Below are positions 23,453-54,351 of a DNA stretch of 64,000 nt, piece after piece (the stretch's first letter is position 1; each line of letters starts with the position of its first letter). The notes under the pieces were generated by a model. That model was given only the letters and a program-made list of their open reading frames with translations, searched no databases and was not told where the DNA came from. Source of the stretch: Candidatus Babelota bacterium (GTDB lineage Bacteria; Babelota; Babeliae; Babelales; Vermiphilaceae); the NCBI GenBank assembly GCA_049325595.1, contig JBMOLF010000001.1, positions 64,001 to 128,000 of the forward strand. Reading direction: 5' to 3'. The translations under genes were made by a program, and so were the position numbers.

Positions 23453-24058
23453 ATGTTTTTTATTGTAATGCTTATTGCTTTTTGCCACTCAAGCGCATTA
23501 GGAATGGAATTAAAAATAGAATCCTATAAAGAATGTAAAGCCGCTCAGGAAAAAGTATGCGCTGCTGCTAAAAATGGAATTTTCCTTCAGGCATTGGTAC
23601 ACACCGAATCCATTCTTTCAAAAATAGATTCCAAAAAGCTTAATTCCTGGACTCATTTTACTCTTCAAGCCGGCGCTTTTGCTTATCTAAGCCATCAAAT
23701 TTTTAGATCTAAAGAACACCTTGAGGCACTCTACTCAAAACAATTTGATCCTTCATCTCATTTAGAATTTAAAAAAGTAAAAGCAGGTTATTATTTAGCG
23801 CAAATAGCTCTTGATGCAAATAATCTCCATCAAGCATTTGAATATTTGAGCGCTGCTTCACAAATCAGCTTGATAAGCAAGAAACGCAAAGAGTTTTATA
23901 TTACTGTTATGAATGATCTAGCAGAATTGTATAAACTTAGAAACGATTTATTAAATGCATGTTCCTGCTATGAAAATATAACGAGACTCGCTGAGGAATT
24001 TCCCCATGATGCGGCAGGCGCACAAATAGATTTAAAGCGATTAGAAAACATCTTATAA
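23453..24058 (+). CDS. Hypothetical secreted helical (TPR-like) protein
   Basis: AAGGAG RBS; signal peptide; YYLAQ..L.....QA..YL helical repeat pattern. Confidence 0.65.
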   Translation: MFFIVMLIAFCHSSALGMELKIESYKECKAAQEKVCAAAKNGIFLQALVHTESILSKIDSKKLNSWTHFTLQAGAFAYLSHQIFRSKEHLEALYSKQFDPSSHLEFKKVKAGYYLAQIALDANNLHQAFEYLSAASQISLISKKRKEFYITVMNDLAELYKLRNDLLNACSCYENITRLAEEFPHDAAGAQIDLKRLENIL

Positions 24059-24060
24059 AC

Positions 24061-24576
24061 TTATTTCAACAGCTGCACATATGCACTATCTAAATAGGTG
24101 TTTATTTCAAAAAAATAATCACATTGCCAAGATTGGGTTTCTAATGCTTGTTTGCTGCTCACCGTATCCCAAGGAGGATAAACACGCATAGCTCGTTTGC
24201 CACCTTTTTCATTTTTTGATAAAAAGCCTTTTTTATGTAGTATTTCTTTGGGAAATATAAAATGCCCCAAGCAATCAGCCTTATGAACACTGACTATCAA
24301 TAATTCAAATGAATCATTTAAATCTAATGGTATTATTGTACCCCTATCATTTCGTTTCCATAAAGTAACAAATTGACCTATTTTTGTAGGAGTTATTTTA
24401 GCAACTCTAAATTTAACTGATTTACCATTTAATTCATAACAACTTGCGCTGTATTCTTTGCTCTCAGCTTCAATAAAAAGATTTGCAATCAAGAAACCAG
24501 CAGCCTCATACAGCTTCAATGCCTTGTGTAAATCAGGATGTAAAATTAAATTTTGAATAGTGATGGAGTTTTTCAT
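24061..24576 (-). CDS. mepB: MepB family protein
   Basis: FRVAKITPTKIGQFVTLWKR, GKRAMRVYPPW, TQ.WQ..YF. Confidence 0.9.
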   Translation of the reverse strand: MKNSITIQNLILHPDLHKALKLYEAAGFLIANLFIEAESKEYSASCYELNGKSVKFRVAKITPTKIGQFVTLWKRNDRGTIIPLDLNDSFELLIVSVHKADCLGHFIFPKEILHKKGFLSKNEKGGKRAMRVYPPWDTVSSKQALETQSWQCDYFFEINTYLDSAYVQLLK

Positions 24577-24581
24577 AGAAA

Positions 24582-25754
24582 TTATAATACCCGAATTACT
24601 TCTTCAAAGGAAGTAAGTCCTTGCGAGAGTTTTGCAAAAGCATCTGCAGCCAACGTCTTCATTCCCTCTTCTTGTGCAATTTGTTCAATATCAGTTAATT
24701 TAGGTTGCTGCACAATAACTGAACGCAACTGATTGCTCATGATAAGCAATTGAAATATACCAATTCTACCCTTATAACCAGTGCCTAGGCATTCAGTACA
24801 ACCAACTGACTCATATAATTTCTCAATGGTGCAACTTAACTTAGTCATTATAGATTGTTGATCAGCAGTAGGTAACTTAACCACCTTACAAGCGTTACAT
24901 AATCGTCGTACCAATCGTTGCGCCAATACACCCGTAAGTGCGGCATTAATTAAGAATGGCTCAATACCCATATCAAGCAGTCGCATGATCACGCTTGGTG
25001 CATCACCCGCGTGAATAGTGCTTAACACAATGTGCCCCGTTAGTGCTGCTTCAATAGCAATATGTGCTGTTTGTTTATCGCGCATTTCTCCAACCATTAT
25101 AATGTCAGGATCTTGTCTAAGCAAAGCGCGCATACCTTTTTCAAAGGTAAATCCTGCTTCAGGATGTATTTGAGCTTGGCTAATGCCAGGAATATTGTAT
25201 TCAATAGGATCTTCAAGAGTGATTATATGTTGCCGTCGATTATTGAGCGCAGAAAGCGCTGCATACAGCGTTGTCGTTTTGCCCGATCCAGTAGGCCCTG
25301 CTGCTAAGAAAAAACCAAATGAACCGGAAAGCAGCTGTTGCGATTGAGCCAACATAGTTGGTTCAAATCCTAGTTGTGGCATTGATATTTTTAATCGTTC
25401 TTGATCAAGCAAACGCAATACAATTTTTTCGCCAAACGAACAAGGAAATGTAGAAAGTCGTACATCGATGATACGATTTTTAAAATTAAAACTAAATTTA
25501 CCATCTTGCGGAATCCGATGCTCAGCCACATTGATATGAGCAAGTATTTTAAGTCGAGCCATTACCGAAGATATGGTATCTATAATACAAGTCGCCGCAT
25601 CATATAAAACGCCATCAATACGCACTCTGATAACCAACCCTTCTGATGATGGTTCAAAATGAATATCAGATGCATTATAAAGCGTTGCCTGCTTTAATAC
25701 CGTATCAACCAAAGAAACGGCAGATAGCTGTTGATCAGCAGGTATACGAAGCAT
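24582..25754 (-). CDS. PilB/GspE-family secretion/pilus ATPase lacking the N1 domain
   Basis: ASDIHFEP, PQDG, GPTGSGKTTTLY, EDPIEY, LRQDPD...GEMRD, C..C zinc motif, GYKGRIG. Confidence 0.93.
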   Translation of the reverse strand: MLRIPADQQLSAVSLVDTVLKQATLYNASDIHFEPSSEGLVIRVRIDGVLYDAATCIIDTISSVMARLKILAHINVAEHRIPQDGKFSFNFKNRIIDVRLSTFPCSFGEKIVLRLLDQERLKISMPQLGFEPTMLAQSQQLLSGSFGFFLAAGPTGSGKTTTLYAALSALNNRRQHIITLEDPIEYNIPGISQAQIHPEAGFTFEKGMRALLRQDPDIIMVGEMRDKQTAHIAIEAALTGHIVLSTIHAGDAPSVIMRLLDMGIEPFLINAALTGVLAQRLVRRLCNACKVVKLPTADQQSIMTKLSCTIEKLYESVGCTECLGTGYKGRIGIFQLLIMSNQLRSVIVQQPKLTDIEQIAQEEGMKTLAADAFAKLSQGLTSFEEVIRVL

Positions 25755-38498: not shown

Positions 38499-39923
38499 AT
38501 GAATAAAACACAAAAAATTATCAGCTTATGCAGTCTGGCATTTATGCTTACTGGTTTTACCATATGGAAACGCGGTGCAGCACATAAACCAGATCTTACC
38601 GCTATAAAAGATTCAACTAATATAATACCCGTACTCATAGTTGGTTCAGGTCCAACAGGATTAAGTGCTGCTTTGTTTACTGCGCGAGCAGGTTTTAAAA
38701 CGGTAGTACTTGCTGGCTCTCAACCAGGTGGTCATTTAAATGAAATTTCAACCATCGAAAATTGGCCAGGTTCTCCTAAAATGAAAGGCACTGAACTGGG
38801 ACAAGAATTAGAAAAACAAGCAACACAGTTTGGGGCACATATTATAAAAGATAATGCAAAAGAAATTGATTTAGGACAATGGCCATTTAAAGTTGAAACC
38901 ACAGATGGTCGTATTTTGCATGCTCTAACGGTTATTGCAGCAACTGGTGGTGAACCAAAGCGCCTAGATATTCCTGGTCTAGATACGTATTGGGGTAAGG
39001 GAGTTGGCGTATGTACTATTTGTGATGCACCGCTTAATAAAGGACAAACAGTAATAGTGGTCGGTGGATCAGATACTGCAGCAGAGCGCGCTATGCAGCT
39101 TGCTCCTTTTGCAAAAAAAGTGATTATGGTAGTTCGTGAACCCCAATTGCAAGCAACGGCACAAGTTCAAAAATACCTCAAAGAATATGATACTATTTCT
39201 ACCATGCTTAACAGCCAAATTATGCGCATAGACGGCGATGGCAATAGAATAAATACGGTTACCGCAAAACATAACACAACTAATCAAACAGAAGCTATCC
39301 CTGCTCATGCAGTATACCTTTCTGTTGGTTTTACACCACGTACCGATTTATTTAAAAAACAAGTAAAATTAGATGCAAATGGCTACATCGCAATTAATCG
39401 TCCAACTCATCAAACTTCGGTTCCCGGTGTTTTTGCTGCTGGTATTGTAACTGATGGCATTTACAACAAGGCAAGTATTTCATCGGGCATGGGAGTACAA
39501 GCTGCTATCGATGCTATTAATTTCTTGCAAGAGATTGGCTATACGCCCGCATTTGAAGAACAAATTGAACAACAACTTTTTAAAGAAAACAATACTAATT
39601 CAGCGAATAACTTGCAAATCATACGCACTCAACAAGAACTTGATACCTTATTAAATAAACCACTGGTAGTTATTCAAACAATGCATCCATTATGTTCATT
39701 ATGCCAAGCAACCCACAAAACATTCAAAAAGCTTGCGCAGCAATATAAAGATAAAATAGCTTTTGCACAGCTTGATATTAGCAAAACAGCACATCTTGCA
39801 AAACAATTAGGAGCAACGCAGGCATCAACACTAATTGCACTAAAAAATGGTAAGGTCATTACTACTAAACAGACTTTTGATGGCAAGCAAATCGAAGAAT
39901 TTGTAAACAACCTAATACGTTAA
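38499..39923 (+). CDS. trxB: Thioredoxin reductase fused to a C-terminal thioredoxin domain, with N-terminal signal/TM
   Basis: GSGPTG FAD motif, IENWPG, CTICD active site, TSVPGVFAAG; C-terminal CSLC thioredoxin fold. Confidence 0.88.
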   Translation: MNKTQKIISLCSLAFMLTGFTIWKRGAAHKPDLTAIKDSTNIIPVLIVGSGPTGLSAALFTARAGFKTVVLAGSQPGGHLNEISTIENWPGSPKMKGTELGQELEKQATQFGAHIIKDNAKEIDLGQWPFKVETTDGRILHALTVIAATGGEPKRLDIPGLDTYWGKGVGVCTICDAPLNKGQTVIVVGGSDTAAERAMQLAPFAKKVIMVVREPQLQATAQVQKYLKEYDTISTMLNSQIMRIDGDGNRINTVTAKHNTTNQTEAIPAHAVYLSVGFTPRTDLFKKQVKLDANGYIAINRPTHQTSVPGVFAAGIVTDGIYNKASISSGMGVQAAIDAINFLQEIGYTPAFEEQIEQQLFKENNTNSANNLQIIRTQQELDTLLNKPLVVIQTMHPLCSLCQATHKTFKKLAQQYKDKIAFAQLDISKTAHLAKQLGATQASTLIALKNGKVITTKQTFDGKQIEEFVNNLIR

Positions 39924-40627: not shown

Positions 40628-41359
40628 TTATTCTTCATTGGTATACTTCTTTTTTGGTGATCTTTTGAAGAATTTTTTAATTTTCTTATTTAATGCCTTC
40701 TGACTCATTTTCCATTTTTCCAATCGCTCTTTGCGTTTTTGTTTTTTTAGCGCTTCTTTTTGTTGTAATTCAATTTTTTTTAGCTGTTTTTTAGTCTGTC
40801 TTTCAGCACGTATCTTTGCTGCTTCTCGAACAATTGGAATTATTTTTTGTTGCAATGTAGTATCAATTTCTTTTTCTTTTTGCTTTATATCCTCTTCTAT
40901 TTTATTTATTTCTTCAACATCCTTTTCCTTTAATTTTTCTACGGTAGCTTTTGTTCTTTGTGTTATACGAGTTATTGAAGCAGGACTATGTTGAGAATAT
41001 CCCTCAGATTCTTCTAATTCATCTTTTATTTTCTGCTCTAAATCATCAGATGGAAAGTTGGTATTAGATTTAATAGTTTCTAGCGCAACTTTTTTTATAA
41101 CATAATCACTATTGCTCTTACGATGTTCATTTAAAATTTTTTCTTTTTCTCTTTCAAGTCTCCTTAAAGTTGTAGCACTAACTTTTCGAATCAATTTATT
41201 AGGACTTCCTTTAGGACTCAGTGAAGGGCTATTTTTTTTAGAACTTTTAGGAGTTATTGCAATCTCAGAAAGAGAAGATGTAGATGTTATTGCTGAATCA
41301 CGCTCTGAAGCTTGGGTTATTCCAGTACATACAATAATAAAAAAAACATAGCTCAACAT
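40628..41359 (-). CDS. Hypothetical Lys/Glu-rich secreted protein
   Basis: Signal peptide, S/T-P-K repeats, coiled coil, basic tail. Confidence 0.72.
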   Translation of the reverse strand: MLSYVFFIIVCTGITQASERDSAITSTSSLSEIAITPKSSKKNSPSLSPKGSPNKLIRKVSATTLRRLEREKEKILNEHRKSNSDYVIKKVALETIKSNTNFPSDDLEQKIKDELEESEGYSQHSPASITRITQRTKATVEKLKEKDVEEINKIEEDIKQKEKEIDTTLQQKIIPIVREAAKIRAERQTKKQLKKIELQQKEALKKQKRKERLEKWKMSQKALNKKIKKFFKRSPKKKYTNEE

Positions 41360-41400
41360 AACTATCCTTCCTTGTTTTTACCCGATGTTTTTTTATTACC

Positions 41401-41436
41401 ATAAAAAAAAGGTCCCTAGAGAAGGAACCTTTTTAT
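41401..41436. terminator. Putative intrinsic terminator hairpin
   Basis: AAAAAGGTCCCT..AGGAACCTTTTT imperfect inverted repeat flanked by A/T runs. Confidence 0.6.
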
Positions 41437-41465
41437 AACATAAGAAAAAAAACAAATTAACATTA

Positions 41466-41915
41466 CTAGCTTATTGATAGCGCATAAAGTTCAGCAAGCA
41501 GAGCTTCATCTAATGCTATACGTTCTTTAGTAAGACCTTGTTCATCCAATGTATTTTGACAAATATACACACCCAATAAGGTTTTAATCGCAGCAAATAA
41601 TGATAGCCCCAAAGAGTTATAGCGTGAATGTAAAACAAAATAAATATGTTTTAATCCAGCAACAGTTAGATAGCCACCAACTACGAGCTTGGCCACATAA
41701 GCTAATTTTTTATTTAAGCTTTTTTGTGAAAACCGCAAATCATTTTTTACTAGCTTGGTATAGAGAGAAAGATGATTTTTTATGTTTGGGATTTTTTTAA
41801 TTGATTGATGCTCTTTATATTGTGCTACAAGCCAATTATAGGTAAATTCTTTTGGTTCTTGCGCTTGTAAGCTTATACCTATTAATATGGCACAAAAAAA
41901 CGTAAATAATTTCAT
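41466..41915 (-). CDS. Hypothetical protein (signal peptide plus 2 TM)
   Basis: ORF architecture only. Confidence 0.65.
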   Translation of the reverse strand: MKLFTFFCAILIGISLQAQEPKEFTYNWLVAQYKEHQSIKKIPNIKNHLSLYTKLVKNDLRFSQKSLNKKLAYVAKLVVGGYLTVAGLKHIYFVLHSRYNSLGLSLFAAIKTLLGVYICQNTLDEQGLTKERIALDEALLAELYALSIS

Positions 41916-41932
41916 AAGTTTTCTTTCATTAG

Positions 41933-42373
41933 CTATTTTGATGGATCAATAATATTTGTTTCATACACTAATGCTTTGTGAATTAAATACCCGCCAAAAG
42001 TCACAAAGATCATTGATGCAAACTTATGAAGCCCTCTAAGCGGACTAACAAGATCTTGCAATACCGCTCTTACATTATCGGTATGGGCATAAGTATCCCA
42101 TTTGGTAATGCCACTTTTATCTTTTGCAAACAAACTTGAACAATGCAAATTAACTAATTTTTTCAGACCTGCTTCAGTTTTATCGCTCTGATAAGCAAGA
42201 TGATAAGATTTGCAACCCAAAGCCACAAGCACCGCGCCCGTTACTATAAGCAATACTCGATCAGCTGGCTTTATCTGACGACTTTTTTGCTCACGTTGAT
42301 CTTTTTTACAAGATTCTGCTTGAATGGTAACAAATGGTTGGAGAATAAGTAGAGTAAGTAATATTTTTTTCAT
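41933..42373 (-). CDS. Hypothetical protein (signal peptide plus 2 TM)
   Basis: ORF architecture only. Confidence 0.65.
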   Translation of the reverse strand: MKKILLTLLILQPFVTIQAESCKKDQREQKSRQIKPADRVLLIVTGAVLVALGCKSYHLAYQSDKTEAGLKKLVNLHCSSLFAKDKSGITKWDTYAHTDNVRAVLQDLVSPLRGLHKFASMIFVTFGGYLIHKALVYETNIIDPSK

Positions 42374-42393
42374 GGTGGGTTTCTTTAAAAAAG

Positions 42394-42810
42394 TTATTGA
42401 TTTTCAGATAATTTAACACGTGCTTTACACATACCTTTATAAATGCTGATCTGTTTAGAAAACTCATCCATCCCATAGAGACGTATAAACTTTATAGTAA
42501 ATTCAGCGCATGCAACAGGCACCTTCAGCTGGCTAAGTTCTTGCCCAATATTTGTCTCAAAACAGTCTTGTAAAACTTTTTCTATTTTAATTTTTTCTCT
42601 TCTGACATGGGCTTGCTCATTTTTTTCTGCTTCTGCTTCACTTGTCATCTCTTTTATATTTTTTATGGTACTTGTTGTATACGAAGCTGCTTCAGCAATT
42701 TTTAAGGTTACTTCTAACACAAAGAGTAAATCCATAGAGAGAGCAGCATTTGTAAAAAAAATAGAAAATAGTAAAGTTGTTTTTTTTATTTTTATAATGT
42801 TTATAAGCAT
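42394..42810 (-). CDS. Small secreted protein, C-x17-C family
   Basis: Signal peptide; CFETNIGQELSQLKVPVACAEFTIKFIRLYG. Confidence 0.7.
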   Translation of the reverse strand: MLINIIKIKKTTLLFSIFFTNAALSMDLLFVLEVTLKIAEAASYTTSTIKNIKEMTSEAEAEKNEQAHVRREKIKIEKVLQDCFETNIGQELSQLKVPVACAEFTIKFIRLYGMDEFSKQISIYKGMCKARVKLSENQ

Positions 42811-42893
42811 AAGAAATTATATCGGCATTTATATATAACAAAATAAGATTGAACAATTCTCAATTTATGAATGTCAGCTTAAATTAAAAATAT

Positions 42894-43232
42894 CTATGTA
42901 AAATTCTCATATTCTTTCCATTTTTCTTCTGGAATTAGCTTATTGTAAGATTGAACAACATTTAAAATTAATTCATCGACATCCTCAAGAATTTCAGCAA
43001 GTGTCATTAACAGGAATCTCATATAGATTAAAATTAAAATCGCTTCAAAGCCATGTGTGCCTGGCAATGAATTTAACCTTTTACTAAGCAAATCCAGATA
43101 ATCTTTTATAACTTCAAATTCTTGGAGACTTTTTTTTGTATTTTCTATCATCTCTATTTGAATTGATTTTATTGGATTTAATTTATAAAGGTGCTCAATT
43201 TTTTGTAAAATTATTTTAGTTTCTTCAATCAT
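42894..43232 (-). CDS. Hypothetical protein, possible immunity protein
   Basis: 112-aa helical ORF overlapping the upstream gene by 4 nt (ATGA). Confidence 0.55.
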   Translation of the reverse strand: MIEETKIILQKIEHLYKLNPIKSIQIEMIENTKKSLQEFEVIKDYLDLLSKRLNSLPGTHGFEAILILIYMRFLLMTLAEILEDVDELILNVVQSYNKLIPEEKWKEYENFT

Positions 43233-43807
43233 GACAATTTGCTCAAAGCTGCTTTAGTGTTTTTTATATCACATCCGCCGTCTACTTTTAGAATGATTTT
43301 TATTTCATTGTGTTTATTAAATACTTCAATTTTTCTTTCATCAATTTTTACATAATCATTTTTTCTCAAGTAAATGTTTACTGATTGTTTTAATTGTAAC
43401 TTTTTAGGATATTTACTTTTTATTAACAAATTATTTGATACAAGCTGATTAATAAATTGAGATGAAATAACATCACAAAATAGTAATTCTTTTATATCAT
43501 CTTTATGTTCAAAATTAACTTTTGGGAACTTAAGAACTATAGTATCAATGTAATTTGCGATATTACTTAATGTTGCTGCCATTGAACCATTAAGCGAATA
43601 AAATCTTACAAGTTCTAATATAATTGCCGGTAAATCATTTTTTATTAAGAATCGATCAATTTTTTCATGACTTTCTTTAATCGCATCTTCTAAAATGGAA
43701 ATTTCATTAGAATCAATTTCTTCAGTTATAGTTTTAGGAGAAATATTTAACTTAAATGTCTTGTTAAGTTGCTCGACTGCTCGAGATAAATTATTAATGA
43801 CGCACAT
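43229..43807 (-). CDS. Putative immunity protein of the orphan toxin tip
   Basis: Starts 4 nt after the toxin-like ORF; no signal peptide. Confidence 0.5.
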   Translation of the reverse strand: MCVINNLSRAVEQLNKTFKLNISPKTITEEIDSNEISILEDAIKESHEKIDRFLIKNDLPAIILELVRFYSLNGSMAATLSNIANYIDTIVLKFPKVNFEHKDDIKELLFCDVISSQFINQLVSNNLLIKSKYPKKLQLKQSVNIYLRKNDYVKIDERKIEVFNKHNEIKIILKVDGGCDIKNTKAALSKLS

Positions 43808-43811
43808 TAAA

Positions 43812-44087
43812 TCATACCTTTATTGTTCGGCCCATCGCATTTTTTGCTTTTATGTAATTAACTGTCCCATCCAGGTTTAAAACTGTTCTTGCAAAACCTC
43901 GCTTATCATAAACCTCAATGTGATCAAAATGAGTTTTATCGATATAATAATGAAAACCTTTTTTTAGATCAGGATGTCCGAAATCTTTTTTTATTTTATA
44001 TACGATTGATTCCTTAACAATAAGATGAGTTTTTTGGGAAAAGTCTTTTAACTTATTGCCGAAATCAGTTTTAAAAAGTTCCTTCAT
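43812..44087 (-). CDS. Orphan polymorphic-toxin C-terminal domain, colicin E3/CdiA-CT-like RNase
   Basis: YYIDKTHFDHIEVYDKRG...VLNLDG resembles the D-x2-H-x2/3-E-x-Y catalytic pattern of colicin-E3-type RNases; no N-terminal delivery region. Confidence 0.6.
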   Translation of the reverse strand: MKELFKTDFGNKLKDFSQKTHLIVKESIVYKIKKDFGHPDLKKGFHYYIDKTHFDHIEVYDKRGFARTVLNLDGTVNYIKAKNAMGRTIKV

Positions 44088-44235
44088 ATTTAGAACTTTG
44101 CTGTAACAAGTATTGCGTTATTTCCAGCATTCACTTATATAGTGCTTCCTGAATAATTATCGAATGGGATAACCAAATACTTTGATTTATGACTTTTTTA
44201 ATTTCGAATTTAATTTTAATTTAAAATAGACTCTT

Positions 44236-44273
44236 TATAACACATACCCTTATCTTAAGGCGTATGTGTTATA
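44236..44273. repeat. Inverted repeat: 17-bp stem with one bulged C
   Basis: TATAACACATAC-CCTTA-tct-TAAGG-c-GTATGTGTTATA. Confidence 0.8.
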
Positions 44274-44300
44274 TGGGTATACTTTGTTGTTCTTTTAGTT

Positions 44301-44633
44301 TTATTCTTGGTTTGATAGATCAGCTTTCTGCATTTCTTGATATGAGCGCATTTTTTTTAAAAGCTCAGTAGTTCCGTGTAATAAAATAAAATCTTTAACA
44401 AATTCTGCACATTTTATAGGCAAATCTAACTGACTTAGCTCACTGCCCAAATTAATCTTTAAACATTCATTAAGACTTTTTTCGATTTTTCTTTTTTCAA
44501 TGTTTAGTTGTGCTTGTTGGTATGCATCTTCTTGAATAACACTATTTGTAGCATAAGATATTTTTGAATAGAACAATGCGTTGGTTGAATTTAGTAAAAT
44601 AAATAAGAAATCGATAATGTTAATTTTTTTCAT
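44301..44633 (-). CDS. Small secreted protein, C-x17-C family
   Basis: Signal peptide; CLKINLGSELSQLDLPIKCAEFVKDFILLHG; close paralog of 42394-42810. Confidence 0.72.
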   Translation of the reverse strand: MKKINIIDFLFILLNSTNALFYSKISYATNSVIQEDAYQQAQLNIEKRKIEKSLNECLKINLGSELSQLDLPIKCAEFVKDFILLHGTTELLKKMRSYQEMQKADLSNQE

Positions 44634-44680
44634 AATGAAATCCCTTTATATGGAGTTAAAATCTTTTTTGATCTACAAGA

Positions 44681-45436
44681 TTAGCTATATTTTTTCTGAA
44701 CACGTTCAGTTAAAGAACCTTTTTCACGAGCTTCTCGTTTTAGTTCAATTAATTCACATTCGTAATCTGAAAGGAATTCAGATTCTTTTAAAGGTTCAAT
44801 TGAAGAAGTATTAACTTTATCTGCAATCTTCGCTACATGAATTATCTTATCCGTTGTAGGAAGATTTTTAAAATCATTGATATATTGTGTAGTAGCATCA
44901 CGTGCAATATCAGCTGCTGACTTAGCGACTGTTATAATTGCAGGGGCTGCACCAGGAATCATTACTATGGCAACTCCTGTAGCGGCAACAGCGAACACAC
45001 AACCTGATATTATTAGTGCCTTTTGAGATGATGACAGTTCACCACTAGCTGTCTCTTTTTCTTTTATTGTTTTAATTACATCTTTATATTCTTGAATAAG
45101 TTCATTTGCTTTTTGCGCACCTCCAGCAAGTTTAAATGCATTCAAACATTCTGAACATTTACCTGGAATATCGTCAATTGAGTCCCTTTTAGCATGAGTT
45201 ACTAAACAATCAATAAAATTTTTTTCTAATTTGAGTAAGCGCGCTTGTTTTTTTAATTCTGCAATGTCATCTTTATTATTAACCTGGATGACTTTGCCTC
45301 CAATTGCAAAAACATTACAAGTTGTGGCAGCTAATTTTCCTATTGCCTCTACTAATTTGAGTTTGTCCCAAAGTGAATCATTGGGACTTGTAGTTTGATG
45401 AATAATTATAAAAATAGCTAAGAACGTCTTTTTCAT
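44681..45436 (-). CDS. Secreted C-x16-C family protein with TM segment
   Basis: CLVTHAKRDSIDDIPGKCSECLNAFKLAGG; hydrophobic ALIISGCVFAVAATGVAIVMIPG. Confidence 0.72.
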   Translation of the reverse strand: MKKTFLAIFIIIHQTTSPNDSLWDKLKLVEAIGKLAATTCNVFAIGGKVIQVNNKDDIAELKKQARLLKLEKNFIDCLVTHAKRDSIDDIPGKCSECLNAFKLAGGAQKANELIQEYKDVIKTIKEKETASGELSSSQKALIISGCVFAVAATGVAIVMIPGAAPAIITVAKSAADIARDATTQYINDFKNLPTTDKIIHVAKIADKVNTSSIEPLKESEFLSDYECELIELKREAREKGSLTERVQKKYS

Positions 45437-45972
45437 TTTGGTCTAACTAGATAAAAATCTGCACTTTTTTTCATACATTCTTTATTGCCAAGATAAAATG
45501 TAAATTGATCAATTAAATCTTTACAGGCTATGGGCATTTGAGTTGTTTCATCAAGCTCATCTGACTTATGCTGCAATAAACATTTATCCAGTAATACCTC
45601 AATTTCATATCCTCTAAGTCGTTTTTTTGCAAGCTCATTTCTTTCTTTTTGTTCTGGAGAGGGTCTTAACCAATTAATAAAACTTCCAATTGTAGCTCCA
45701 ACCACTGAAAAATTTCTACCAATATTTGAGATACTTTCAACTGTTCCTACAACACCTTTTTGAACTGCATTAGCTATTTTTTCATTGCTATCAGCCGTTC
45801 GTTCTTGTGGCGTTTTTTCTGAGTTAGTATCGTGTGCTTGATTTTTTTGATTTTCAACAATGTTTACATCATTCAAGTTAACTGTCTCAGAGGCTATTGA
45901 AATTTCATATGAAAGGCCGCTCAAAATAGCTATTAAAACCAGAAAAGTAATATTATTTTTCATCAAGAACAT
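45433..45972 (-). CDS. Secreted C-x18-C family protein
   Basis: Signal peptide; CLLQHKSDELDETTQMPIACKDLIDQFTFYLG. Confidence 0.72.
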   Translation of the reverse strand: MFLMKNNITFLVLIAILSGLSYEISIASETVNLNDVNIVENQKNQAHDTNSEKTPQERTADSNEKIANAVQKGVVGTVESISNIGRNFSVVGATIGSFINWLRPSPEQKERNELAKKRLRGYEIEVLLDKCLLQHKSDELDETTQMPIACKDLIDQFTFYLGNKECMKKSADFYLVRPK

Positions 45973-45980
45973 CCTTTATT

Positions 45981-46481
45981 TTATTGTTTATTAAATGATT
46001 TGATCTCATTAACACAACTATCCCACTTAGCTAAAAATATACTTAGCAAATTTAGTTCATATCCTGTTCTAATAAATTGATAAATTAATAACTGCTTATC
46101 AAAGTCATCTAAATATTTAACTTCAACAAATTCGGTTATTAGCCTACACGTAAAAATGCTTTGTTTTTCATTCACAAAATTATTCCATACTTTTTGAAGA
46201 CAATCTTCAAAATCTTCCGCATATTGATCTGCTAATTTACTATTTGTCTCTTTACCAATAGCTACTAAAATTCTTTTTATTAATTTATCCCGTAGAAATT
46301 CATATTCTTTTCTAGCATCAGAAACAACTTTCTTTTGCTCAGTTATTTTTTTTCCTAAAGCTGATAATTCTTGGTATTTCTGTATTAACTGATCTGATGC
46401 GTTATCATTGCCGGAAAGAATAGAAGAAAAAATTAAAGAATAGACGATAAACCATTTCTTCATAAGAAGTGATTCCCCCAA
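45981..46481 (-). CDS. Secreted helical protein
   Basis: MKKWFIVYSLIFSSILSG signal peptide; coiled coil; a C-x17-C spacing is present. Confidence 0.68.
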   Translation of the reverse strand: MGESLLMKKWFIVYSLIFSSILSGNDNASDQLIQKYQELSALGKKITEQKKVVSDARKEYEFLRDKLIKRILVAIGKETNSKLADQYAEDFEDCLQKVWNNFVNEKQSIFTCRLITEFVEVKYLDDFDKQLLIYQFIRTGYELNLLSIFLAKWDSCVNEIKSFNKQ

Positions 46482-46515
46482 GGTGTATGGCTAAATAAAT
46501 TACTGCTGATGCGGA

Positions 46516-46544
46516 ATTATAAAAAAAATTTAATTAAATGTCTA
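46516..46544 (-). promoter_or_regulatory. Putative sigma70 promoter for the small secreted-protein cluster
   Basis: TAGACA-17 nt-TATAAT on the minus strand. Confidence 0.65.
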
Positions 46545-46607
46545 ACAAATAGATAAAATTTTCTCTTGTGAAATTTTTGAGCTAGGTAAGTGAATTTAAT
46601 GTTTCAT

Positions 46608-47069
46608 TTATACAAAAACTGGCTTTAACCAGAGGGCTTGTAATTCGTTTTTTTCAATTACCGCAACAACATTAGTGATAAATTCAACCGCTTGATTATT
46701 CTTAGTTGGATCGCCTACGCAAACCCAGCCTGACTGCTGATTATAATAAACTGGCCAATGAATGTTGTTTAATCTATAAGAAAACCCTGGTTCATAACTT
46801 TTTAAAACCTTTAATTGTCCCACCTCATAATTTGGCACAGGCAAATCTGTTAAAATCCATTCGTGATTAGGGCAAAATCCATCAACTTGTACCACTAAAT
46901 TATTTACCACCGTTAAATTTAAATAGTTTATAACTAAAACAAAATCAATTCTTGCAGTAAATGGTCTAATATTAAAAGAAAATTCATCAAATAAGTAAAA
47001 TAATTTTCTTTGCTTTGCCTGTACAAATTCATCTTTAATTATGAATTCCATAAAATCTTTATTGATCAC
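46608..47069 (-). CDS. Hypothetical protein, possible immunity protein
   Basis: Beta-rich cytoplasmic ORF ending GWVCVGD...AVEF....VAV......ALWLKP; coupled to the upstream immunity array. Confidence 0.6.
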   Translation of the reverse strand: MINKDFMEFIIKDEFVQAKQRKLFYLFDEFSFNIRPFTARIDFVLVINYLNLTVVNNLVVQVDGFCPNHEWILTDLPVPNYEVGQLKVLKSYEPGFSYRLNNIHWPVYYNQQSGWVCVGDPTKNNQAVEFITNVVAVIEKNELQALWLKPVFV

Positions 47070-47869
47070 CTAGGATCCAGTGAAAGCTCAACAAAATCTA
47101 GTCCTTGGCATATTGAGGCTAATAAATCTAGATAGCGCCAATAATCAAAAACTACATCAGGACCACTAAATATACGCTCTTGCTTCCAAGGAAAAAAAGC
47201 ATTTGATATCTGCATGATTAATTCTTTATTCTCTGTATTAACGCAAATACCCATAAAAAAATAGGTGCCCTCACATTTGACATACAAATTATTACTCATC
47301 CGCTTTTCAATTTTTTCTATGATTTCTTGAACTGATAACAAGTAAGAATCACCGTACCATTCGTCATTTTGATATTCAAAAAAATAACATTCTTGAACTT
47401 GAGCGTTAGAAACAATACTGTGTACAGTTTTTGTTAAATCTGCGTAATTAAACTTAAGAGAAATAGAATGAGTATTATCAGAATCAGAATTAAAAAAACT
47501 TTTAGAACTAATGCGTTTAACAGGCCCTATATAAAACTGCTCAATTTCAAAGTTAATAGCTAATAGTAGCGCGTAAGAAAACATTAAATCTGTATTACAA
47601 ATAAAATTACTTGGAATAAAACTCAATACAAGATGTTGCTTAATCAACTGCATTGATAAATTAAAAAAAATATTGTTATGCGAAAGAATCAAAGTGGTAC
47701 TTAAATCAGTTTTTATGATTTGTATAAGTTCATTTTTCCCCAAAAATATTATTTCTTTGTTTTCGTTATAAAATAAAAATTGATTCAGTAATAAATTTGC
47801 ATGCAACCCATTTATAGATTCGCCAAAATCATCACGTACTTTTAATTTCATAAAAGCTGCATTAGTCAT
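47066..47869 (-). CDS. Putative immunity protein (two tandem repeat units)
   Basis: C-terminal DYWRYLDLLASICQGL matches the motif in the two neighbouring ORFs; N-terminal half is a degenerate copy. Confidence 0.6.
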   Translation of the reverse strand: MTNAAFMKLKVRDDFGESINGLHANLLLNQFLFYNENKEIIFLGKNELIQIIKTDLSTTLILSHNNIFFNLSMQLIKQHLVLSFIPSNFICNTDLMFSYALLLAINFEIEQFYIGPVKRISSKSFFNSDSDNTHSISLKFNYADLTKTVHSIVSNAQVQECYFFEYQNDEWYGDSYLLSVQEIIEKIEKRMSNNLYVKCEGTYFFMGICVNTENKELIMQISNAFFPWKQERIFSGPDVVFDYWRYLDLLASICQGLDFVELSLDPR

Positions 47870-48714: not shown

Positions 48715-51700
48715 TTATCCCTCTATGAAAGATATACCATTGTCATAAAACCATTTTTGCCAATGTTCTGGAATAGGCTGCTTGGAATGCACCTCAAACG
48801 TCTTTCCATAAGCACTCGCATTTTTTTTCTGCTCAATAAATCTACTTTTCATAGTCTGCATTTTTTTTGCAGTTATATTTTGCCAGTATCTATCTTTGCA
48901 TTCTATTAACTTGGATAAAGTTTCTATATCAAATTCGCAAGTCTTATTCCCAGGAAGTTTTCTTCCAAAATAAACAACTTTTTCACCTTTTGATTCTAAG
49001 TTAAGAGCTTTTTCAAGTTCATAAATAGCACCCCTAGCGGTATTTAAATCATTACCATCTAAAGTCTTGGTTGCCGTCTTTAAAATTTTATATAGGGGTC
49101 CATCTTTATTCCAAAAACTATTCACCTCTTTAAATAACCTTGCCCCATCAGTTACCTTCTCAACATTAATTATTGATTCCATCTCGAAATTTGTTAAATA
49201 TTCTGAAACTGTTTTTAAATTTTTAAGAACAGCATTTATATGCTCTTCTAGCTGCTGATTAGTGACAACTAATTTACCTATGCTATTAGTTATCCTCTCA
49301 GCTTCCATGAACTGTGCTGGAATTTTACTTTCTACTGCAAATCCTTCAGCAGTTTGGGCTACCGCATTTACTTCTTTTAATTCGCGTAAAATATTTTCTG
49401 CTCGTGCAAGAGCCACTTGTATTGCAGGAGACGTTGCATTAAAAATTACTCCCAATCCCTGATCGATCAATAATCCTTCAGTAACCATTCTGCCTATTAA
49501 CTTTGCTTTTTCTTGTACGGGTAGTTCGGCTAATGCAATCATAGTTTTGGCAAGATTGATTCCATCTGTACCAACTCTATTGCAAAGACTATTTAATTTT
49601 GCAGCACATTTTTCTAAATCATCCTGCAACACTATGTCAGCCAAATCCAATAAAATATCTGCGGTATATACAAAAGGTTTTATAAATCCTTCAGTTGCAT
49701 TGAGCACAAACTGTTCTGGATTTTTTGCAATCTCGCTACCTAACTCTGAACCTTCTCTCACCGCCAACCACGCACATTCAGCCGCCAGTTTTTCATTGTT
49801 ATACAATTCAGTTATAAAAGTGCTTGGAATCTCAGATAAAAGACGATTAAGACAATCGTCAATAAGCACATTTTTATTGTGCACCTTTAAATCTTGGTAA
49901 GAAGCTTTTGATTCATAATCACTGAGTATTTGAATTGTTTGCTTTAATGTATGGGCAATTGATGAGCCTAATGGATTAATAACACGCGCTGTATCAGAAA
50001 AAACAATATTTTCAGTAACTACATAAAGCTTGTGGGCCACATTTTGCGCAGAATAAGCAACTTGATTAAAACAATGTTCTAATGAATGTCCTACATATTT
50101 TGATACTGTTTGGCCATATTCAAACAAAGACCAGCAAAAATCCGCTAAACTAAGTGCTTTAGAGGCATGCCCTTCTAAATTTACTTTTGCGGTATGCAAT
50201 AAATAATCAGCAATCTTACTATGCAGCGTTTTATCATAATCTGAGGCTGTCTTTTTAAATGATAATTCTGAAACCTTATTAAAGAGTTCAACAACCTCAG
50301 TATGTACAACTTGCTGAATTGCGTTACCAATACAATATTCTAAAACTCTTTGATTTTCTTTTTTTTGATTAAGCAACCATTTTGATTCTAAGCTAAGTTC
50401 ATAATTTTGTTCGTAAACAATAGAACCATGCTCTTTAATAAAATTTAATGCTTCTTCTCGGCGGGTTACAATAAACTCCGCTTGCTTGTTATTTTCAGAT
50501 AAGACAAGTGGTGCTACTTGTTCATACTTATCTAGTTGCGCCTTGCAGTCATTAAAATTTTGTTCTATTAAGTTAGTTATCTCATTTCTTAAAGAAGAAT
50601 CTATATGGTAATTATATTTTTTTTGATGCTTACTTAAATTAACAAATCTGGCGATAACCGGCGCATTATAGGAATAATCCCATTGAGGAATTTTATTATC
50701 AGATTCCTCTATTTTAGGTAATCCATTAATAGTCAATTCATTTTTCACCAAATTTTGTTCAGCAATTGTAGCCTGTGGCGATGAAGCTTGAGCAATCAAA
50801 CTATCTTGGTCATTAACTGCAATTGCCTGCTTAGCATTTAAGTTGTTCTCTGATGCTAAAGATTCAGTTTTATTTTTTTTCAACCCTGAAATTATACGAT
50901 TGTAAGGCAACAGACTTTCGCTATTTTTTAGATAGTCGGCAGCTTCATTTGATTTATTATTTTCTGCTAATTTTATGAGATGGCCAAGTTTTTGATTTAC
51001 CTCATTAGCTTGTACTTTTTTTAAAAAGGTTTTGGGAGTACAACCACGTTGTAAATTTTTTATACCATTTATAATCTGTTGCGAACTGCTTTTTGCACAC
51101 TGGTAGGCCTGTCCAATCCCACCTTCGGTTTTTATTGTATTTAAAATACTGGTACGTGAATTAATATCATTTACTATAGTCGATTTAAAATTATCAGTAT
51201 TGATCGATAACAAAGTGTCATACCACTCTGCTGGACTTCCTGAAATTGTCTTGCAAAAATCGGCACAAATTTGCGTTATTAATTGTCTGTCATTGCTAGA
51301 AAGATCTACCTTAATTGTTGCATCCGGAGCGCATGCGACTAAACTAAGCTTTTCTTTTATTGGTATCCATTGCTGATTATAGCTGGTATTATTTATGGAG
51401 CTATGCAATAACTCATGAATAGCTTTTACCGTTGAAAAACTATTATTACTTTCAAGCAAAGTTTTAAAGTTTGTTTTAATAGATTCAATAGCATTGAGTG
51501 TGGCAACATCACAAAGATTTTTTTGAATCGGAACATTAACTAATAATTGAACAGGATTATCAGATAAATAAGGATTTAATTCTGATGCGAGTTTCTTTTC
51601 AGAACTATAAAGATATAACGATTGTCCCTCATTCCAATGCTGATTAAGAATAGGATTATTTCGATAGAGTGGAATAACATCTAATGCTTTTCCATTACCC

Positions 51701-51936
51701 CACTCTATTTCATGATATTGCTTATATGCGCTATAGTTTTCCATACGATTAAAACTACTATTAAGAGATTTTGATCGTTGATCATAAACAATATCATTTT
51801 GTTTAGAGGCAATTTCTACATAGGGTTTGGAAGTAGTACATTTTTGTACATTACTAAAGTGCGCAATAGGCACTGGAACATCTTTATATGAACCCCAGAT
51901 TGGCAACGTTATGCATAATACTATTAAAAAAAACAT
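48715..51936 (-). CDS. Large secreted polymorphic toxin-like protein with C-terminal PD-(D/E)XK (REase-fold) nuclease
   Basis: Signal peptide; long helical body; C-terminal GAIYE...EFDIE....IECK...Q motif; followed by small coupled genes. Confidence 0.75.
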   Translation of the reverse strand: MFFLIVLCITLPIWGSYKDVPVPIAHFSNVQKCTTSKPYVEIASKQNDIVYDQRSKSLNSSFNRMENYSAYKQYHEIEWGNGKALDVIPLYRNNPILNQHWNEGQSLYLYSSEKKLASELNPYLSDNPVQLLVNVPIQKNLCDVATLNAIESIKTNFKTLLESNNSFSTVKAIHELLHSSINNTSYNQQWIPIKEKLSLVACAPDATIKVDLSSNDRQLITQICADFCKTISGSPAEWYDTLLSINTDNFKSTIVNDINSRTSILNTIKTEGGIGQAYQCAKSSSQQIINGIKNLQRGCTPKTFLKKVQANEVNQKLGHLIKLAENNKSNEAADYLKNSESLLPYNRIISGLKKNKTESLASENNLNAKQAIAVNDQDSLIAQASSPQATIAEQNLVKNELTINGLPKIEESDNKIPQWDYSYNAPVIARFVNLSKHQKKYNYHIDSSLRNEITNLIEQNFNDCKAQLDKYEQVAPLVLSENNKQAEFIVTRREEALNFIKEHGSIVYEQNYELSLESKWLLNQKKENQRVLEYCIGNAIQQVVHTEVVELFNKVSELSFKKTASDYDKTLHSKIADYLLHTAKVNLEGHASKALSLADFCWSLFEYGQTVSKYVGHSLEHCFNQVAYSAQNVAHKLYVVTENIVFSDTARVINPLGSSIAHTLKQTIQILSDYESKASYQDLKVHNKNVLIDDCLNRLLSEIPSTFITELYNNEKLAAECAWLAVREGSELGSEIAKNPEQFVLNATEGFIKPFVYTADILLDLADIVLQDDLEKCAAKLNSLCNRVGTDGINLAKTMIALAELPVQEKAKLIGRMVTEGLLIDQGLGVIFNATSPAIQVALARAENILRELKEVNAVAQTAEGFAVESKIPAQFMEAERITNSIGKLVVTNQQLEEHINAVLKNLKTVSEYLTNFEMESIINVEKVTDGARLFKEVNSFWNKDGPLYKILKTATKTLDGNDLNTARGAIYELEKALNLESKGEKVVYFGRKLPGNKTCEFDIETLSKLIECKDRYWQNITAKKMQTMKSRFIEQKKNASAYGKTFEVHSKQPIPEHWQKWFYDNGISFIEG

Positions 51937-51954: not shown

Positions 51955-53280
51955 TTAAATTTTCTCTTTTTTTAAATCCTGTAAATAATTTATGGTCTTT
52001 GTATCGCTCTTAATCAATGATTTATTGTCCTGCCAAGCCAATACTTTGTCTTTCAATTTTTCATCACTGTATATCTGCAAATTATTATGAAAATTCGATT
52101 GTTCGAGCTGATGATTAAAGCTTTGTTGTTGCAAATTTAATTGAGTATCAAACTGATTTGATTGAGTTCTTAACTGTATATAAAAGTTGCGTTGATTTAA
52201 ATATAAGTTAAGAATCGATATTACTGTTGGTAATCCCTGAGTAATAAATATTCTCATACCTGGTTTTATTTTTTGGTATAAGTTACCAAACCAGTCATTC
52301 CATGTGTTCCAATTTTTGATGAGACGCTCAAAATCTTGCTCTTGAATAACAATATCTGTTTTGTTTCTAATCTTGGCGTTACGTGCAGCTTGCTTAACTA
52401 AACGATCTAGCATTCTTAAAGGTTTACCCTTAGTTCGGTGGGCTATGTAATCTATATATTTATCATTGATTTTATACGGAATACTAAGAGCAGCTAGGTG
52501 ATACCTTATCGCCTCTTTACGCGAATTATAACTTGACTGACCTAATGTGATAATATCAAAATCAATAAAACGTGTTTTTATAGGTGATGGCAAATCTTGA
52601 AAAGCTTTGTTAGAAGTACCAATAAAAAACACATTTCCATATTTATTACAATCATCAAGCATTGTCCAAAATTTAGCAACCGCAGCTTTATCTTGTTTAT
52701 TATCAGCTTCAGCCAAATCGGTAATCTCAGTAAATTCATCCAAAATCAAAACACAATCTGTTTGAGTCTTAAACAAAGTATGAAATAAATGGTTTATATT
52801 TTCAGCTCCAGAATGTTTGTACTTATCAAGTAAATCAGGAGCTCTTTCTAGTCTATACCTTCTTTTTGTTACTTTTGCTATAGCCATAGCCAAGCTAGTC
52901 TTACCCATTCCAGGTTCTCCTAAAAGCAACATTCTATCGGGCAATAAATCTCTGGAAATTGGATCTATTAAACTATCAACAATGTCCTCAACCTCAGCAG
53001 GAGCCGAATCTATTAATTTTTTAGCAAAATCATCACTTATAGAGTGAATATCATCATTGAATATATTATTTTGGTTAAATTTTAAAGAATATGTCTTAGT
53101 GCTCTCTTCAGTATCTTCATCAATATAAATAATTGGTTTTTTTGTAATAACCCTGTCAACAAGATCATTTACTCGTATAGATGTGCGCGTATTGTTGATA
53201 GTTTCCTGGCAATAGAGGTTACTTGATAAGCTTATGCTGATAAATATATTAAAAAGAATTACACTTATATTATTCTTCAT
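51955..53280 (-). CDS. AAA+ ATPase (classic clade) with signal peptide-like N-terminus and C-terminal hydrophobic helix
   Basis: GEPGMGKT, LILDE, IGTSN, LPSPIKTRF. Confidence 0.88.
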   Translation of the reverse strand: MKNNISVILFNIFISISLSSNLYCQETINNTRTSIRVNDLVDRVITKKPIIYIDEDTEESTKTYSLKFNQNNIFNDDIHSISDDFAKKLIDSAPAEVEDIVDSLIDPISRDLLPDRMLLLGEPGMGKTSLAMAIAKVTKRRYRLERAPDLLDKYKHSGAENINHLFHTLFKTQTDCVLILDEFTEITDLAEADNKQDKAAVAKFWTMLDDCNKYGNVFFIGTSNKAFQDLPSPIKTRFIDFDIITLGQSSYNSRKEAIRYHLAALSIPYKINDKYIDYIAHRTKGKPLRMLDRLVKQAARNAKIRNKTDIVIQEQDFERLIKNWNTWNDWFGNLYQKIKPGMRIFITQGLPTVISILNLYLNQRNFYIQLRTQSNQFDTQLNLQQQSFNHQLEQSNFHNNLQIYSDEKLKDKVLAWQDNKSLIKSDTKTINYLQDLKKEKI

Positions 53281-53301: not shown

Positions 53302-54351
53302 TCATGCGTGATCATTCATCCAGCGCTCATATCTTCTATCGGCTTTAATGGTGTAGTACAAATTAATCATTGAAAATAAGATGGGTGGACCATATATAAG
53401 CACATCTCTTATAGTAAATTTATTTTTATTAATAAATTCTTTTAACGAAAATGATTTTTTACTTTCATGCAAGGCACGTAAAAAGTCATTTTTTGTAATT
53501 ATGCTTCGTGGATTTTTATAATGCGCATACTGCGCCGCTCGTATAATTACGGATTCAATTTCACGAATAGACATTCCCGCAGTTTTTGTTGCAAGCCACC
53601 GACATTCCGATCGCGTCCAATCTTTAGTAATTTGACCTAAATAAAATGCGATTATTTCTACCCTATTGTCATAGTCAGGTAGATTTATGGGAACAATAAA
53701 ACCTTCAAATCTACTTTTTAAAGGTCCAGGAATATCGTTAAGATCATTAGCAGTTGCAATAAAAAAGATATTTGGATTTTGAGCGCATCGATCGAGCAAC
53801 AACCACAGCGCCTCAAGTAACCCTGGATCAATATCCTGTCCCTCTTTTTTATTTTTGAAAAATACATTGATTTCATCGATAATAATGGTCATTTTTTGAT
53901 TTGATTCTAAAATTTCACCAAATATTTTTAATAAATTTTGAGGACCGGAATGTTTATATTCATTGGCAACAAAAGGTGCTTCTATCACTATATAATCTGC
54001 CTCAAGCATATGTCCTATCGCTTTTGCTAATGTTGTTTTCCCACATCCAGGAGGACCAACCAATAAAAGCCTTTTAGGTTTTGCCTTTGCATATATTAAT
54101 GGATAACGAAGATTATAAATAATTTGTTTAAGTCGTTCAGACATTTGCTTTTGAACTAGAGAAAGCAACAAACTATCTTCTTGCTGATCACTACAATACG
54201 CACTATCCTCAATAGGAATTTTTTTGATATTTTTATCGACTAATTCAGCTACAGATTTTGGTTTTTCTTCTGAATTAGGTACAATATTATTAAAATAGAA
54301 AGACAACAGAATAATTATTAAGTAGCAAACATTAAAATGGACTTTTCTCAT
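53302..54351 (-). CDS. AAA+ ATPase (classic clade) with signal peptide-like N-terminus and C-terminal hydrophobic helix
   Basis: GPPGCGKT, IIIDE, IATAN, IPGPLKSRF, LPD...R..I, T.GMS.REIE. Confidence 0.9.
   Translation of the reverse strand: MRKVHFNVCYLIIILLSFYFNNIVPNSEEKPKSVAELVDKNIKKIPIEDSAYCSDQQEDSLLLSLVQKQMSERLKQIIYNLRYPLIYAKAKPKRLLLVGPPGCGKTTLAKAIGHMLEADYIVIEAPFVANEYKHSGPQNLLKIFGEILESNQKMTIIIDEINVFFKNKKEGQDIDPGLLEALWLLLDRCAQNPNIFFIATANDLNDIPGPLKSRFEGFIVPINLPDYDNRVEIIAFYLGQITKDWTRSECRWLATKTAGMSIREIESVIIRAAQYAHYKNPRSIITKNDFLRALHESKKSFSLKEFINKNKFTIRDVLIYGPPILFSMINLYYTIKADRRYERWMNDHA

Follow-up and report, generated by a model that had tools for sequence, protein, structure and literature searches.

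The window analysed here is a 64,000-nucleotide stretch of contig C1 of a Candidatus Babelota genome (1.29 Mb, 95% complete; assembly GCA_049325595.1), and our subject is a cassette of small genes lying in its 41.4–54.4 kb portion, a run of minus-strand genes with a GC content of ∼29–32% compared with ∼35% elsewhere. Four open reading frames (ORFs) of the cassette (42394, 44301, 44681 and 45433) align over a common block with an invariant C, C and F, and on sequence grounds they appear to form a protein family not described before, which to date is confined to Dependentiae as far as a representative library that carries no taxonomy labels can tell. The cassette is conserved, lineage-restricted and variable in copy number, and its products are leader-bearing helical proteins. 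We refer to members in which the common domain ends the protein as B-type and to those in which at least 60 residues follow it as C-type; the remaining gene of the cassette belongs to a second family, A. The features are as follows.

46516..46544, minus strand: promoter-like site TAGACA-17-TATAAT, matching 11 of 12 consensus positions, within the 126-bp gap upstream of the family-A gene
45981..46481, minus strand: family-A gene, the first gene of the cassette; N-terminal hydrophobic leader, then a long helical/coiled-coil protein
45433..45972, minus strand: B-type member of 179 residues; leader, polar variable region, Gly-rich amphipathic helix (79–102), domain
45436–45675, minus strand (residues ∼100–179 of the 179-residue protein): P-x-x-C three-helix domain, from profile match and AlphaFold
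44681..45436, minus strand: C-type member of 251 residues; leader, helix, domain, hydrophobic hairpin, basic C-terminal helix
45047–45274, minus strand (residues 55–130 of the 251-residue protein): domain
44918–45022, minus strand (residues 139–173 of the 251-residue protein): hydrophobic hairpin with a central Pro motif
44301..44633, minus strand: short member of 110 residues; leader and domain only, the domain at 44322–44588
42394..42810, minus strand: short member of 138 residues; leader, short helix and domain, the domain at 42421–42687

The genes for the 251-residue and 179-residue proteins share a 4-base overlap, and the 138-residue copy is split from the remaining cassette by three unrelated small genes. 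For the family-A gene, the true start is likely to be the ATG at 46463, which has GGGGGAA ahead of it. The extra helices attributed to two of these proteins by the first-pass annotation are present, as the hydrophobic stretch 139–173 of the 251-residue protein and the predicted helix 79–102 of the 179-residue protein. The near-consensus promoter that it placed at this cassette is likewise there and ranks best across 41300–47200; it is a consensus match only, and promoter-like sites in this interval (33) show no excess over shuffled sequence (30.2 ± 6.1).

The P-x-x-C domain: conservation, predicted fold and distribution

The grouping of the four minus-strand genes by a common C...C...F motif stands far above chance. 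The pattern C-x(16-18)-C-x6-F-x4-G occurs in 9 of the 5444 genome ORFs of at least 40 residues, 7 of these being family members, compared with a mean of 1.65 and a maximum of 5 in 20 residue shuffles. The stricter C[LF]..P-x-x-C-x6-F-x4-G is found in 6 of the 5444, all family members, and in none of 20 shuffles. A hidden Markov model (HMM) built from the window copies matches eight genome ORFs at E ≤ 6.6e-8, namely the five that built it, one on contig C7 and two on contig C11, with the next ORF at E = 0.4.

The unit common to these proteins is a domain of ∼85 residues with the consensus.G...Y.Y..P[ST].EE......LkAe..L..CL..N.....G[IL]P..C......F...AG......Fk. (159 instances in 153 proteins), in which two conserved cysteines are spaced by 17–19 residues. 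The proline and the second cysteine are present in 100% of instances, the first cysteine in 91% and the conserved L and G in 90% each. The first cysteine is thus kept in 144 instances and replaced in 15 (S in 10, A in 3, E in 1 and one further).

AlphaFold, run with a 72-sequence alignment, models residues 100–179 of the 179-residue protein at a predicted local distance difference test (pLDDT) score of 93–98, with helices at 106–134, 148–161 and 163–176 and a 13-residue loop containing a small bridge after the first. The same three helices are the sole confidently modelled part of the 251-residue protein. In the model, helix 1 extends three residues past Cys131 and Cys150 stands two residues inside helix 2, and a disulfide across the base of the loop would be geometrically plausible. 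Periplasmic disulfides are feasible since a VKOR-type oxidase is encoded in the genome, where searches for DsbA and DsbB found no homologs of either. Of the disulfide-stapled helical hairpin proposed earlier, the paralogy, the helical core and the plausible placement of the cysteines are retained, but the model is a three-helix bundle and not a simple hairpin. The P-x-x-C signature remains invariant where the first cysteine has been lost, which indicates that the second cysteine has a further role and that a staple is not the whole explanation.

Structure searches returned little that is specific to this fold. Foldseek gave no match in PDB at E ≤ 1e-3, a wide VIA structure search gave generic helical matches only (best Z 6.8), and in the ESM Atlas neither the 251-residue nor the 179-residue protein had a usable feature match, all structure rows having a template-modelling score (TM) < 0.5. 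The best compact structural match is human Coa6 (PDB 6pce; Z 6.7, root-mean-square deviation 2.3 Å over 57 residues), which appears amid unrelated helical chains, with similar VIA Z values for such chains as bS20 (∼6.2–6.5) and an ATP synthase subunit. Like Coa6 and the CHCH/twin-CX9C arrangement, the domain is modelled as a small helical unit in which the first two helices could be held by cysteines near the loop; unlike it, the domain has no CX9C pairs, carries only the two widely spaced cysteines and adds a third helix. There is also no sequence relation, and the Z-score lies within the tool's range for common arrangements.

Searched against 1.84 billion representatives, the domain profile recovers 512 clusters (50% identity) at E ≤ 1e-3 and 157 at E ≤ 1e-10. 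In a survey of 261 Dependentiae genomes, one per species, the domain was found in 33, often as tandem arrays of up to 7 copies. By taxonomic family it occurs in 16 of 79 genomes in f1 (without G000), 6 of 41 in f3, 5 of 14 in f6, 4 of 10 in f11 and 1 of 35 in f12, and in no genome of sixteen other Dependentiae families.

Pfam, NCBIfam and PHROGs contain neither the family nor its partner A nor the cassette. The window proteins have no match of any weight in these three libraries, and they fall short of the cut-off for the colicin-type pore-forming domain PF01024 and for every other Pfam family; a Pfam scan of 45 relatives found none with any family at E ≤ 1e-3. Neither these libraries nor PDB sequences yielded a known, unrelated family sharing the motif, and against PDB sequences the domain profile has no credible relative. 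The best PDB hit, to zinc fingers (E = 0.027), was judged spurious. Ten library clusters were looked up, two of which are named, both as ‘hypothetical protein’ and one of them with Candidatus Dependentiae bacterium, and proteins of close relatives are named in NCBI as ‘hypothetical protein [Candidatus Dependentiae bacterium ...]’, which places the present genome in this phylum of intracellular bacteria that infect protists. Since some relatives of the window proteins are recorded in NCBI under names from a Dependentiae strain in culture, work in a cultured system may be feasible.

Members of the Dependentiae, which are widespread, live as obligate parasites of protists, and their large secretome is almost wholly uncharacterised. 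In one cultured member of the phylum, signal peptides are found on 44% of proteins, a set enriched in ORFans (PMC6561590). Full-text searches of Dependentiae papers, and passages of PMC6561590, gave no mention of the family, its partner A or the cassette. Judged from the models, the fold would be ordinary and the general kind familiar, that of an expanded, exported, helical, membrane-associated family of an intracellular bacterium; what annotators gain is a new domain, and experimenters a compact module with a P-x-x-C signature and a modelled fold.

Cassette partners, architectures and possible mobility

The gene at 45981–46481 had been considered a possible degenerate member of the domain family, a view that our comparisons do not bear out. 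An alignment of 19 homologs, taken from 3 loci of this genome and 13 fetched loci, defines a family of 150–190 residues with an N-terminal hydrophobic leader and a conserved ..LKF..IR...E...LK.L...YE.. end, and its other members lack the two domain cysteines. Profile–profile comparison of family A with the domain gives a probability of 0.12%. In the first HMM, 45981–46481 scored only through being one of its builders; a domain profile that leaves it out (A2; 16 sequences, drawn from this genome and five relatives) matches none of the 23 family-A proteins in 23 regions at E < 0.01. Family A is also present in 33 of the 261 Dependentiae genomes, and 27 genomes hold both the domain and family A, compared with a chance expectation of ∼4 that takes no account of the non-independence of related genomes. 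Judged by sequence, family A is a separate coiled-coil family and a fixed partner of the cassette.

Gene order was compared in 23 regions, comprising 20 of 9–19 kb around matches in 16 other genomes and the 3 loci of this genome. Clustering of their 513 ORFs placed 58 members of the domain family in all 23 regions and 23 members of family A in 18. The recurrent order is X2, a small membrane protein, (B), A, B, then (B or C); counted from the closest A gene, B lies at +1 in 17 cases and at −1 in 6, and C at +2/+3 in 6. X2 denotes a family of 11 members in 10 of the 23 regions, with a leader, a ∼100-residue domain, a GGG(P) motif and a Gly/Ala/Thr-rich hydrophobic tail of 60–120 residues ending in ..FLP. 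In 9 of 11 cases X2 is directly followed by a leaderless membrane protein of 64–157 residues. Examples, each with the gene for a tiny protein of 2–4 transmembrane segments next downstream, are:

L054:10888–11529: X2
L060:9785–10438: X2
L048:11153–11833: X2

X2 has no Pfam match. By eye, X2 and the tiny membrane protein suggest a microcin-style toxin–immunity pair. X2 is absent from the present genome (best E 0.29), where A-B-C consequently stands alone.

Among the 153 family proteins surveyed for architecture, the domain ends the protein in 136 (B-type), 43 of which have a transmembrane-like stretch between leader and domain; the median hydrophobicity of the helix preceding the domain is high, and in B proteins the variable N-terminal region is often amphipathic and rich in Ala. 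Proteins made of leader and domain only number 27 and resemble the 110- and 138-residue copies of the window. At least 60 residues follow the domain in 15 of the 153 (C-type), with a transmembrane-like stretch there in 14 of these 15, and a few proteins contain two or three tandem domains. In an alignment of 16 C-type proteins the hairpin is strongly conserved (..KK.LIG....VG.....V.AAP...PGT..AAKA.A..), forming two hydrophobic lobes around a conserved P-x3-P-G-T turn, and after it come a second helix, Y..[PT].EEEL, and a tail, ..SL.ERI.., that is basic; C77, P91, C94, P161 and P165 are invariant. The domain therefore nearly always adjoins a hydrophobic or amphipathic segment, standing after the segment in B-type proteins and before the hairpin in C-type proteins.

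The cassette flanks are heterogeneous. They include housekeeping genes and, in a few genera, genes for type II secretion or pili (4 regions with T2SS-F, 1 with secretin and PilM), while genes for an integrase, a primase-like DUF3987 protein and a recombinase adjoin several cassettes. A tree of the domain (53 rows, 89 columns) is mostly unresolved; in it, copies of B after A, B before A and C-type form no separate clades, and the 110- and 138-residue copies are a lineage-specific sister pair (support 99/91). Copies from different taxonomic families are joined on short branches, for example G046 (f3) with G240 and G215 (f1) and G241 (f1) with G101 (f6). Along with the patchy distribution and the integrase and primase genes nearby, these cross-family branches suggest that the cassette has moved horizontally within the phylum.

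The loci of contig C11 show two further peculiarities. The C-type copy there (21364–22227, minus strand; L006:1006–1869) has an in-frame TAG right after the predicted leader (MKKIIFLFVGLISFQA*SVGK...), past which the reading frame is otherwise intact. The copy may have become a pseudogene recently, the stop may be a sequencing error, or an internal start may yield a product that lacks the leader. Directly upstream of the same cassette (23853–25397, minus strand) are three tandem paralogs of a membrane protein of ∼170 residues, which has no Pfam match; a homolog lies beside a cassette in another genus (L061:3746–4270).

Proposed function and alternative explanations

We read the cassette, tentatively and with a probability of roughly 0.4, as an autonomous, mobile, exported and membrane-associated module and not as a set of subunits of a toxin system. 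In such a module the cassette proteins would be exported by Sec and would act at a membrane, with the hydrophobic segment inserting into, or resting on, the bilayer. The P-x-x-C bundle, usually disulfide-stapled, would form a stable unit for pairing subunits or for displaying the variable N-terminal parts. The whole may serve this intracellular parasite as a membrane-active weapon, or as a complex in the envelope or a host membrane, and would function independently of the neighbouring AAA and large-protein genes. A complex prediction for the B domain, the C domain and mature A scored 0.02 against a mark of 0.32 and weighs neither way.

Several observations count against this reading. Export is read from hydrophobic leaders at the N-terminus, assessed by eye and with a crude test; the signal peptides described by the first-pass annotation are borne out to the extent that a basic N-terminus and a short hydrophobic run are present in all four proteins, but the crude test does not discriminate, since it is passed by 625 of the 1061 genome ORFs of at least 150 residues (59%). 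Topology appears to be the chief obstacle to any model: a leader followed by one true transmembrane helix before the domain would leave the domain in the cytoplasm, whereas a leader followed by the domain alone would export it, so that the B-type proteins with a transmembrane stretch and the leader-plus-domain forms are in conflict. A C-type gene is found in only 6–7 of the 23 regions, which means that anchoring of B by C cannot serve as a general model. In 9% of instances the domain does without its first cysteine. Finally, the predicted fold is a generic helical bundle that has no informative structural neighbour.

The first-pass annotation had proposed that the small proteins are translocon, adaptor or periplasmic immunity subunits of a toxin system, which relates them to genes lying upstream in the same minus-strand run:

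53302–54351 and 51955–53280, minus strand: tandem classic AAA ATPase genes (PF00004) with hydrophobic N-termini
48715–51936, minus strand: leader-bearing protein of 1073 residues, downstream of the AAA pair

Next in the run come four small ORFs without leaders, and after them the cassette, which has a promoter-like site of its own. Export would be an unusual property for AAA ATPases. In an alignment of three homologs of the 1073-residue protein, similarity is confined to the central ∼350 residues and the C-termini diverge, as in polymorphic toxins, and only these variable C-termini hint that the neighbours might be toxins. The protein has no match in Pfam, NCBIfam, PHROGs or PDB sequences; a resemblance of its C-terminus to PD-(D/E)xK nucleases, noted by eye, found no support in the library searches. 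The central region occurs in 45 of the 261 genomes, usually in multiple copies, and 15 genomes hold both it and the Cys domain.

The genomic context does not favour this accessory role, in which the cassette would serve the AAA ATPases and the 1073-residue toxin-like protein, and we regard it as very improbable. Of the 33 domain-bearing genomes, 4 (G000, G001, G241 and G109, in three gene orders) have a large-protein homolog no more than 10 kb from a domain gene, the adjacency on which the proposal can draw, but the other 29 have no such neighbour, and in 18 of the 33 this query found no homolog of the 1073-residue protein. Within the present genome too the modules occur apart, the cassettes on contigs C7 and C11 having no AAA or large-protein neighbour and a second AAA and large-protein pair on contig C23 having no cassette. 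Given the 4 of 33 genomes and this separate occurrence, the association is occasional and not defining; the cassette also has its own promoter-like site, and no toxin domain was identified. Polymorphic toxin systems reportedly combine immunity arrays with variable toxin C-termini, and the tandem paralog arrays beside a large protein with variable C-termini are similar in this respect. The paralogs differ, however, in carrying leaders and hydrophobic segments, in usually occurring without the large protein and with family A instead, and in lacking the regular toxin-adjacent placement of immunity genes.

With a module that is independent of these neighbours preferred, its target has to be considered. 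A stronger form of this reading, which we think possible but doubtful, is that A-B-C, X2 and the tiny membrane protein are a horizontally mobile, Sec-dependent membrane-attack system in which hairpins and Gly-rich helices breach or remodel a foreign membrane (that of a competitor or of a host organelle), with the P-x-x-C module as an assembly or redox-controlled switch. The cassette would be of higher interest if this role were true. A bacteriocin-like module, in which exported membrane-damaging proteins act on co-resident bacteria while a membrane-anchored paralog or the small membrane proteins protect the producer, is unlikely in our view, even though conflict systems typically show, as the cassette does, tandem amplification, a patchy distribution and neighbouring mobile-element genes. 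X2 and the small membrane protein head the cassette in relatives, where the succession of an exported, hydrophobic Gly/Ala-rich protein and a tiny membrane protein resembles the microcin–immunity pairs of Enterobacteria in composition and gene order. The pair is missing from the window and the genome, however, where A-B-C is kept nonetheless, and X2 has a Sec-type leader and a ∼100-residue N-domain. In the scanned regions there was no ABC/C39 or other leader-peptidase exporter and no double-glycine leader, and the libraries gave no match.

Alternatively, the proteins may be host-directed effectors whose hairpin and amphipathic helices insert into host membranes (vacuole, endoplasmic reticulum, mitochondria or lipid droplets) in the manner of chlamydial Inc proteins. 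Inc proteins have a type III signal and a bilobed hairpin of ∼40–60 residues and reside in the host vacuole membrane. In favour of this, members of the lineage live as obligate intracellular parasites, and their large Sec-dependent secretome has been proposed to manipulate the host (PMC6561590); the C-type proteins have a two-lobed hydrophobic hairpin flanked by helical domains, as in IncA, the N-termini of B proteins are often Ala-rich and amphipathic, and the family has expanded and diverged. This Inc-type hairpin is restricted to C-type members (139–173; 16 proteins), however, where it occupies the middle or the C-terminal half, behind a leader that is Sec-like by eye, and no sequence-family match was found. 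A strongly hydrophobic hairpin behind a Sec leader should moreover stop in the inner membrane of the bacterium, no dedicated effector-translocation system was linked to the cassette and the proteins have no eukaryote-like domains, so that we consider a host-directed role, too, to be rather unlikely. A resident envelope complex that does not act on other cells, with a housekeeping or mobile-element role such as exclusion or envelope maintenance, would fit the envelope-like appearance of all parts and the type II secretion, type IV pilus or mobile-element genes beside some cassettes. Against it, the module occurs in only 33 of the 261 genomes and is therefore not essential. The pilus and secretion neighbours come from few genera and may reflect a common insertion site; such a complex seems improbable to us.

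Other features around the cassette

The large-protein and AAA families recur elsewhere in the genome. A homolog of the 1073-residue protein is encoded at 22388–25315 of contig C23, and the last ∼125 residues of the protein recur, at 27% identity, in an ORF near the end of contig C1. AAA paralogs are found on contigs C11, C23 and C12, and the trio of two AAA genes and a large-protein gene is also present in a relative (L055).

Between and after the two short family members lie five small ORFs that have neither a paralog in the genome nor a library match:

43812–44087, minus strand: ORF of 91 residues
43229–43807, minus strand: small ORF
42894–43232, minus strand: small ORF
41933–42373, minus strand: small ORF
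41466–41915, minus strand: small ORF

The 91-residue ORF was searched against Pfam, NCBIfam, PHROGs and PDB sequences with no match, and a resemblance to colicin-E3-type RNases, noted by eye, likewise found no support in the libraries. The minus-strand run ends at a strong terminator-like hairpin of 12 pairs (41434–41406). Beyond it, on the plus strand, 38499–39923 encodes a protein of 474 residues that by eye looks like a thioredoxin-reductase-type flavoprotein fused to a C-terminal thioredoxin-like CxxC domain; its N-terminal hydrophobic segment suggests a membrane-anchored or exported redox fusion beside the cysteine-bearing cluster.

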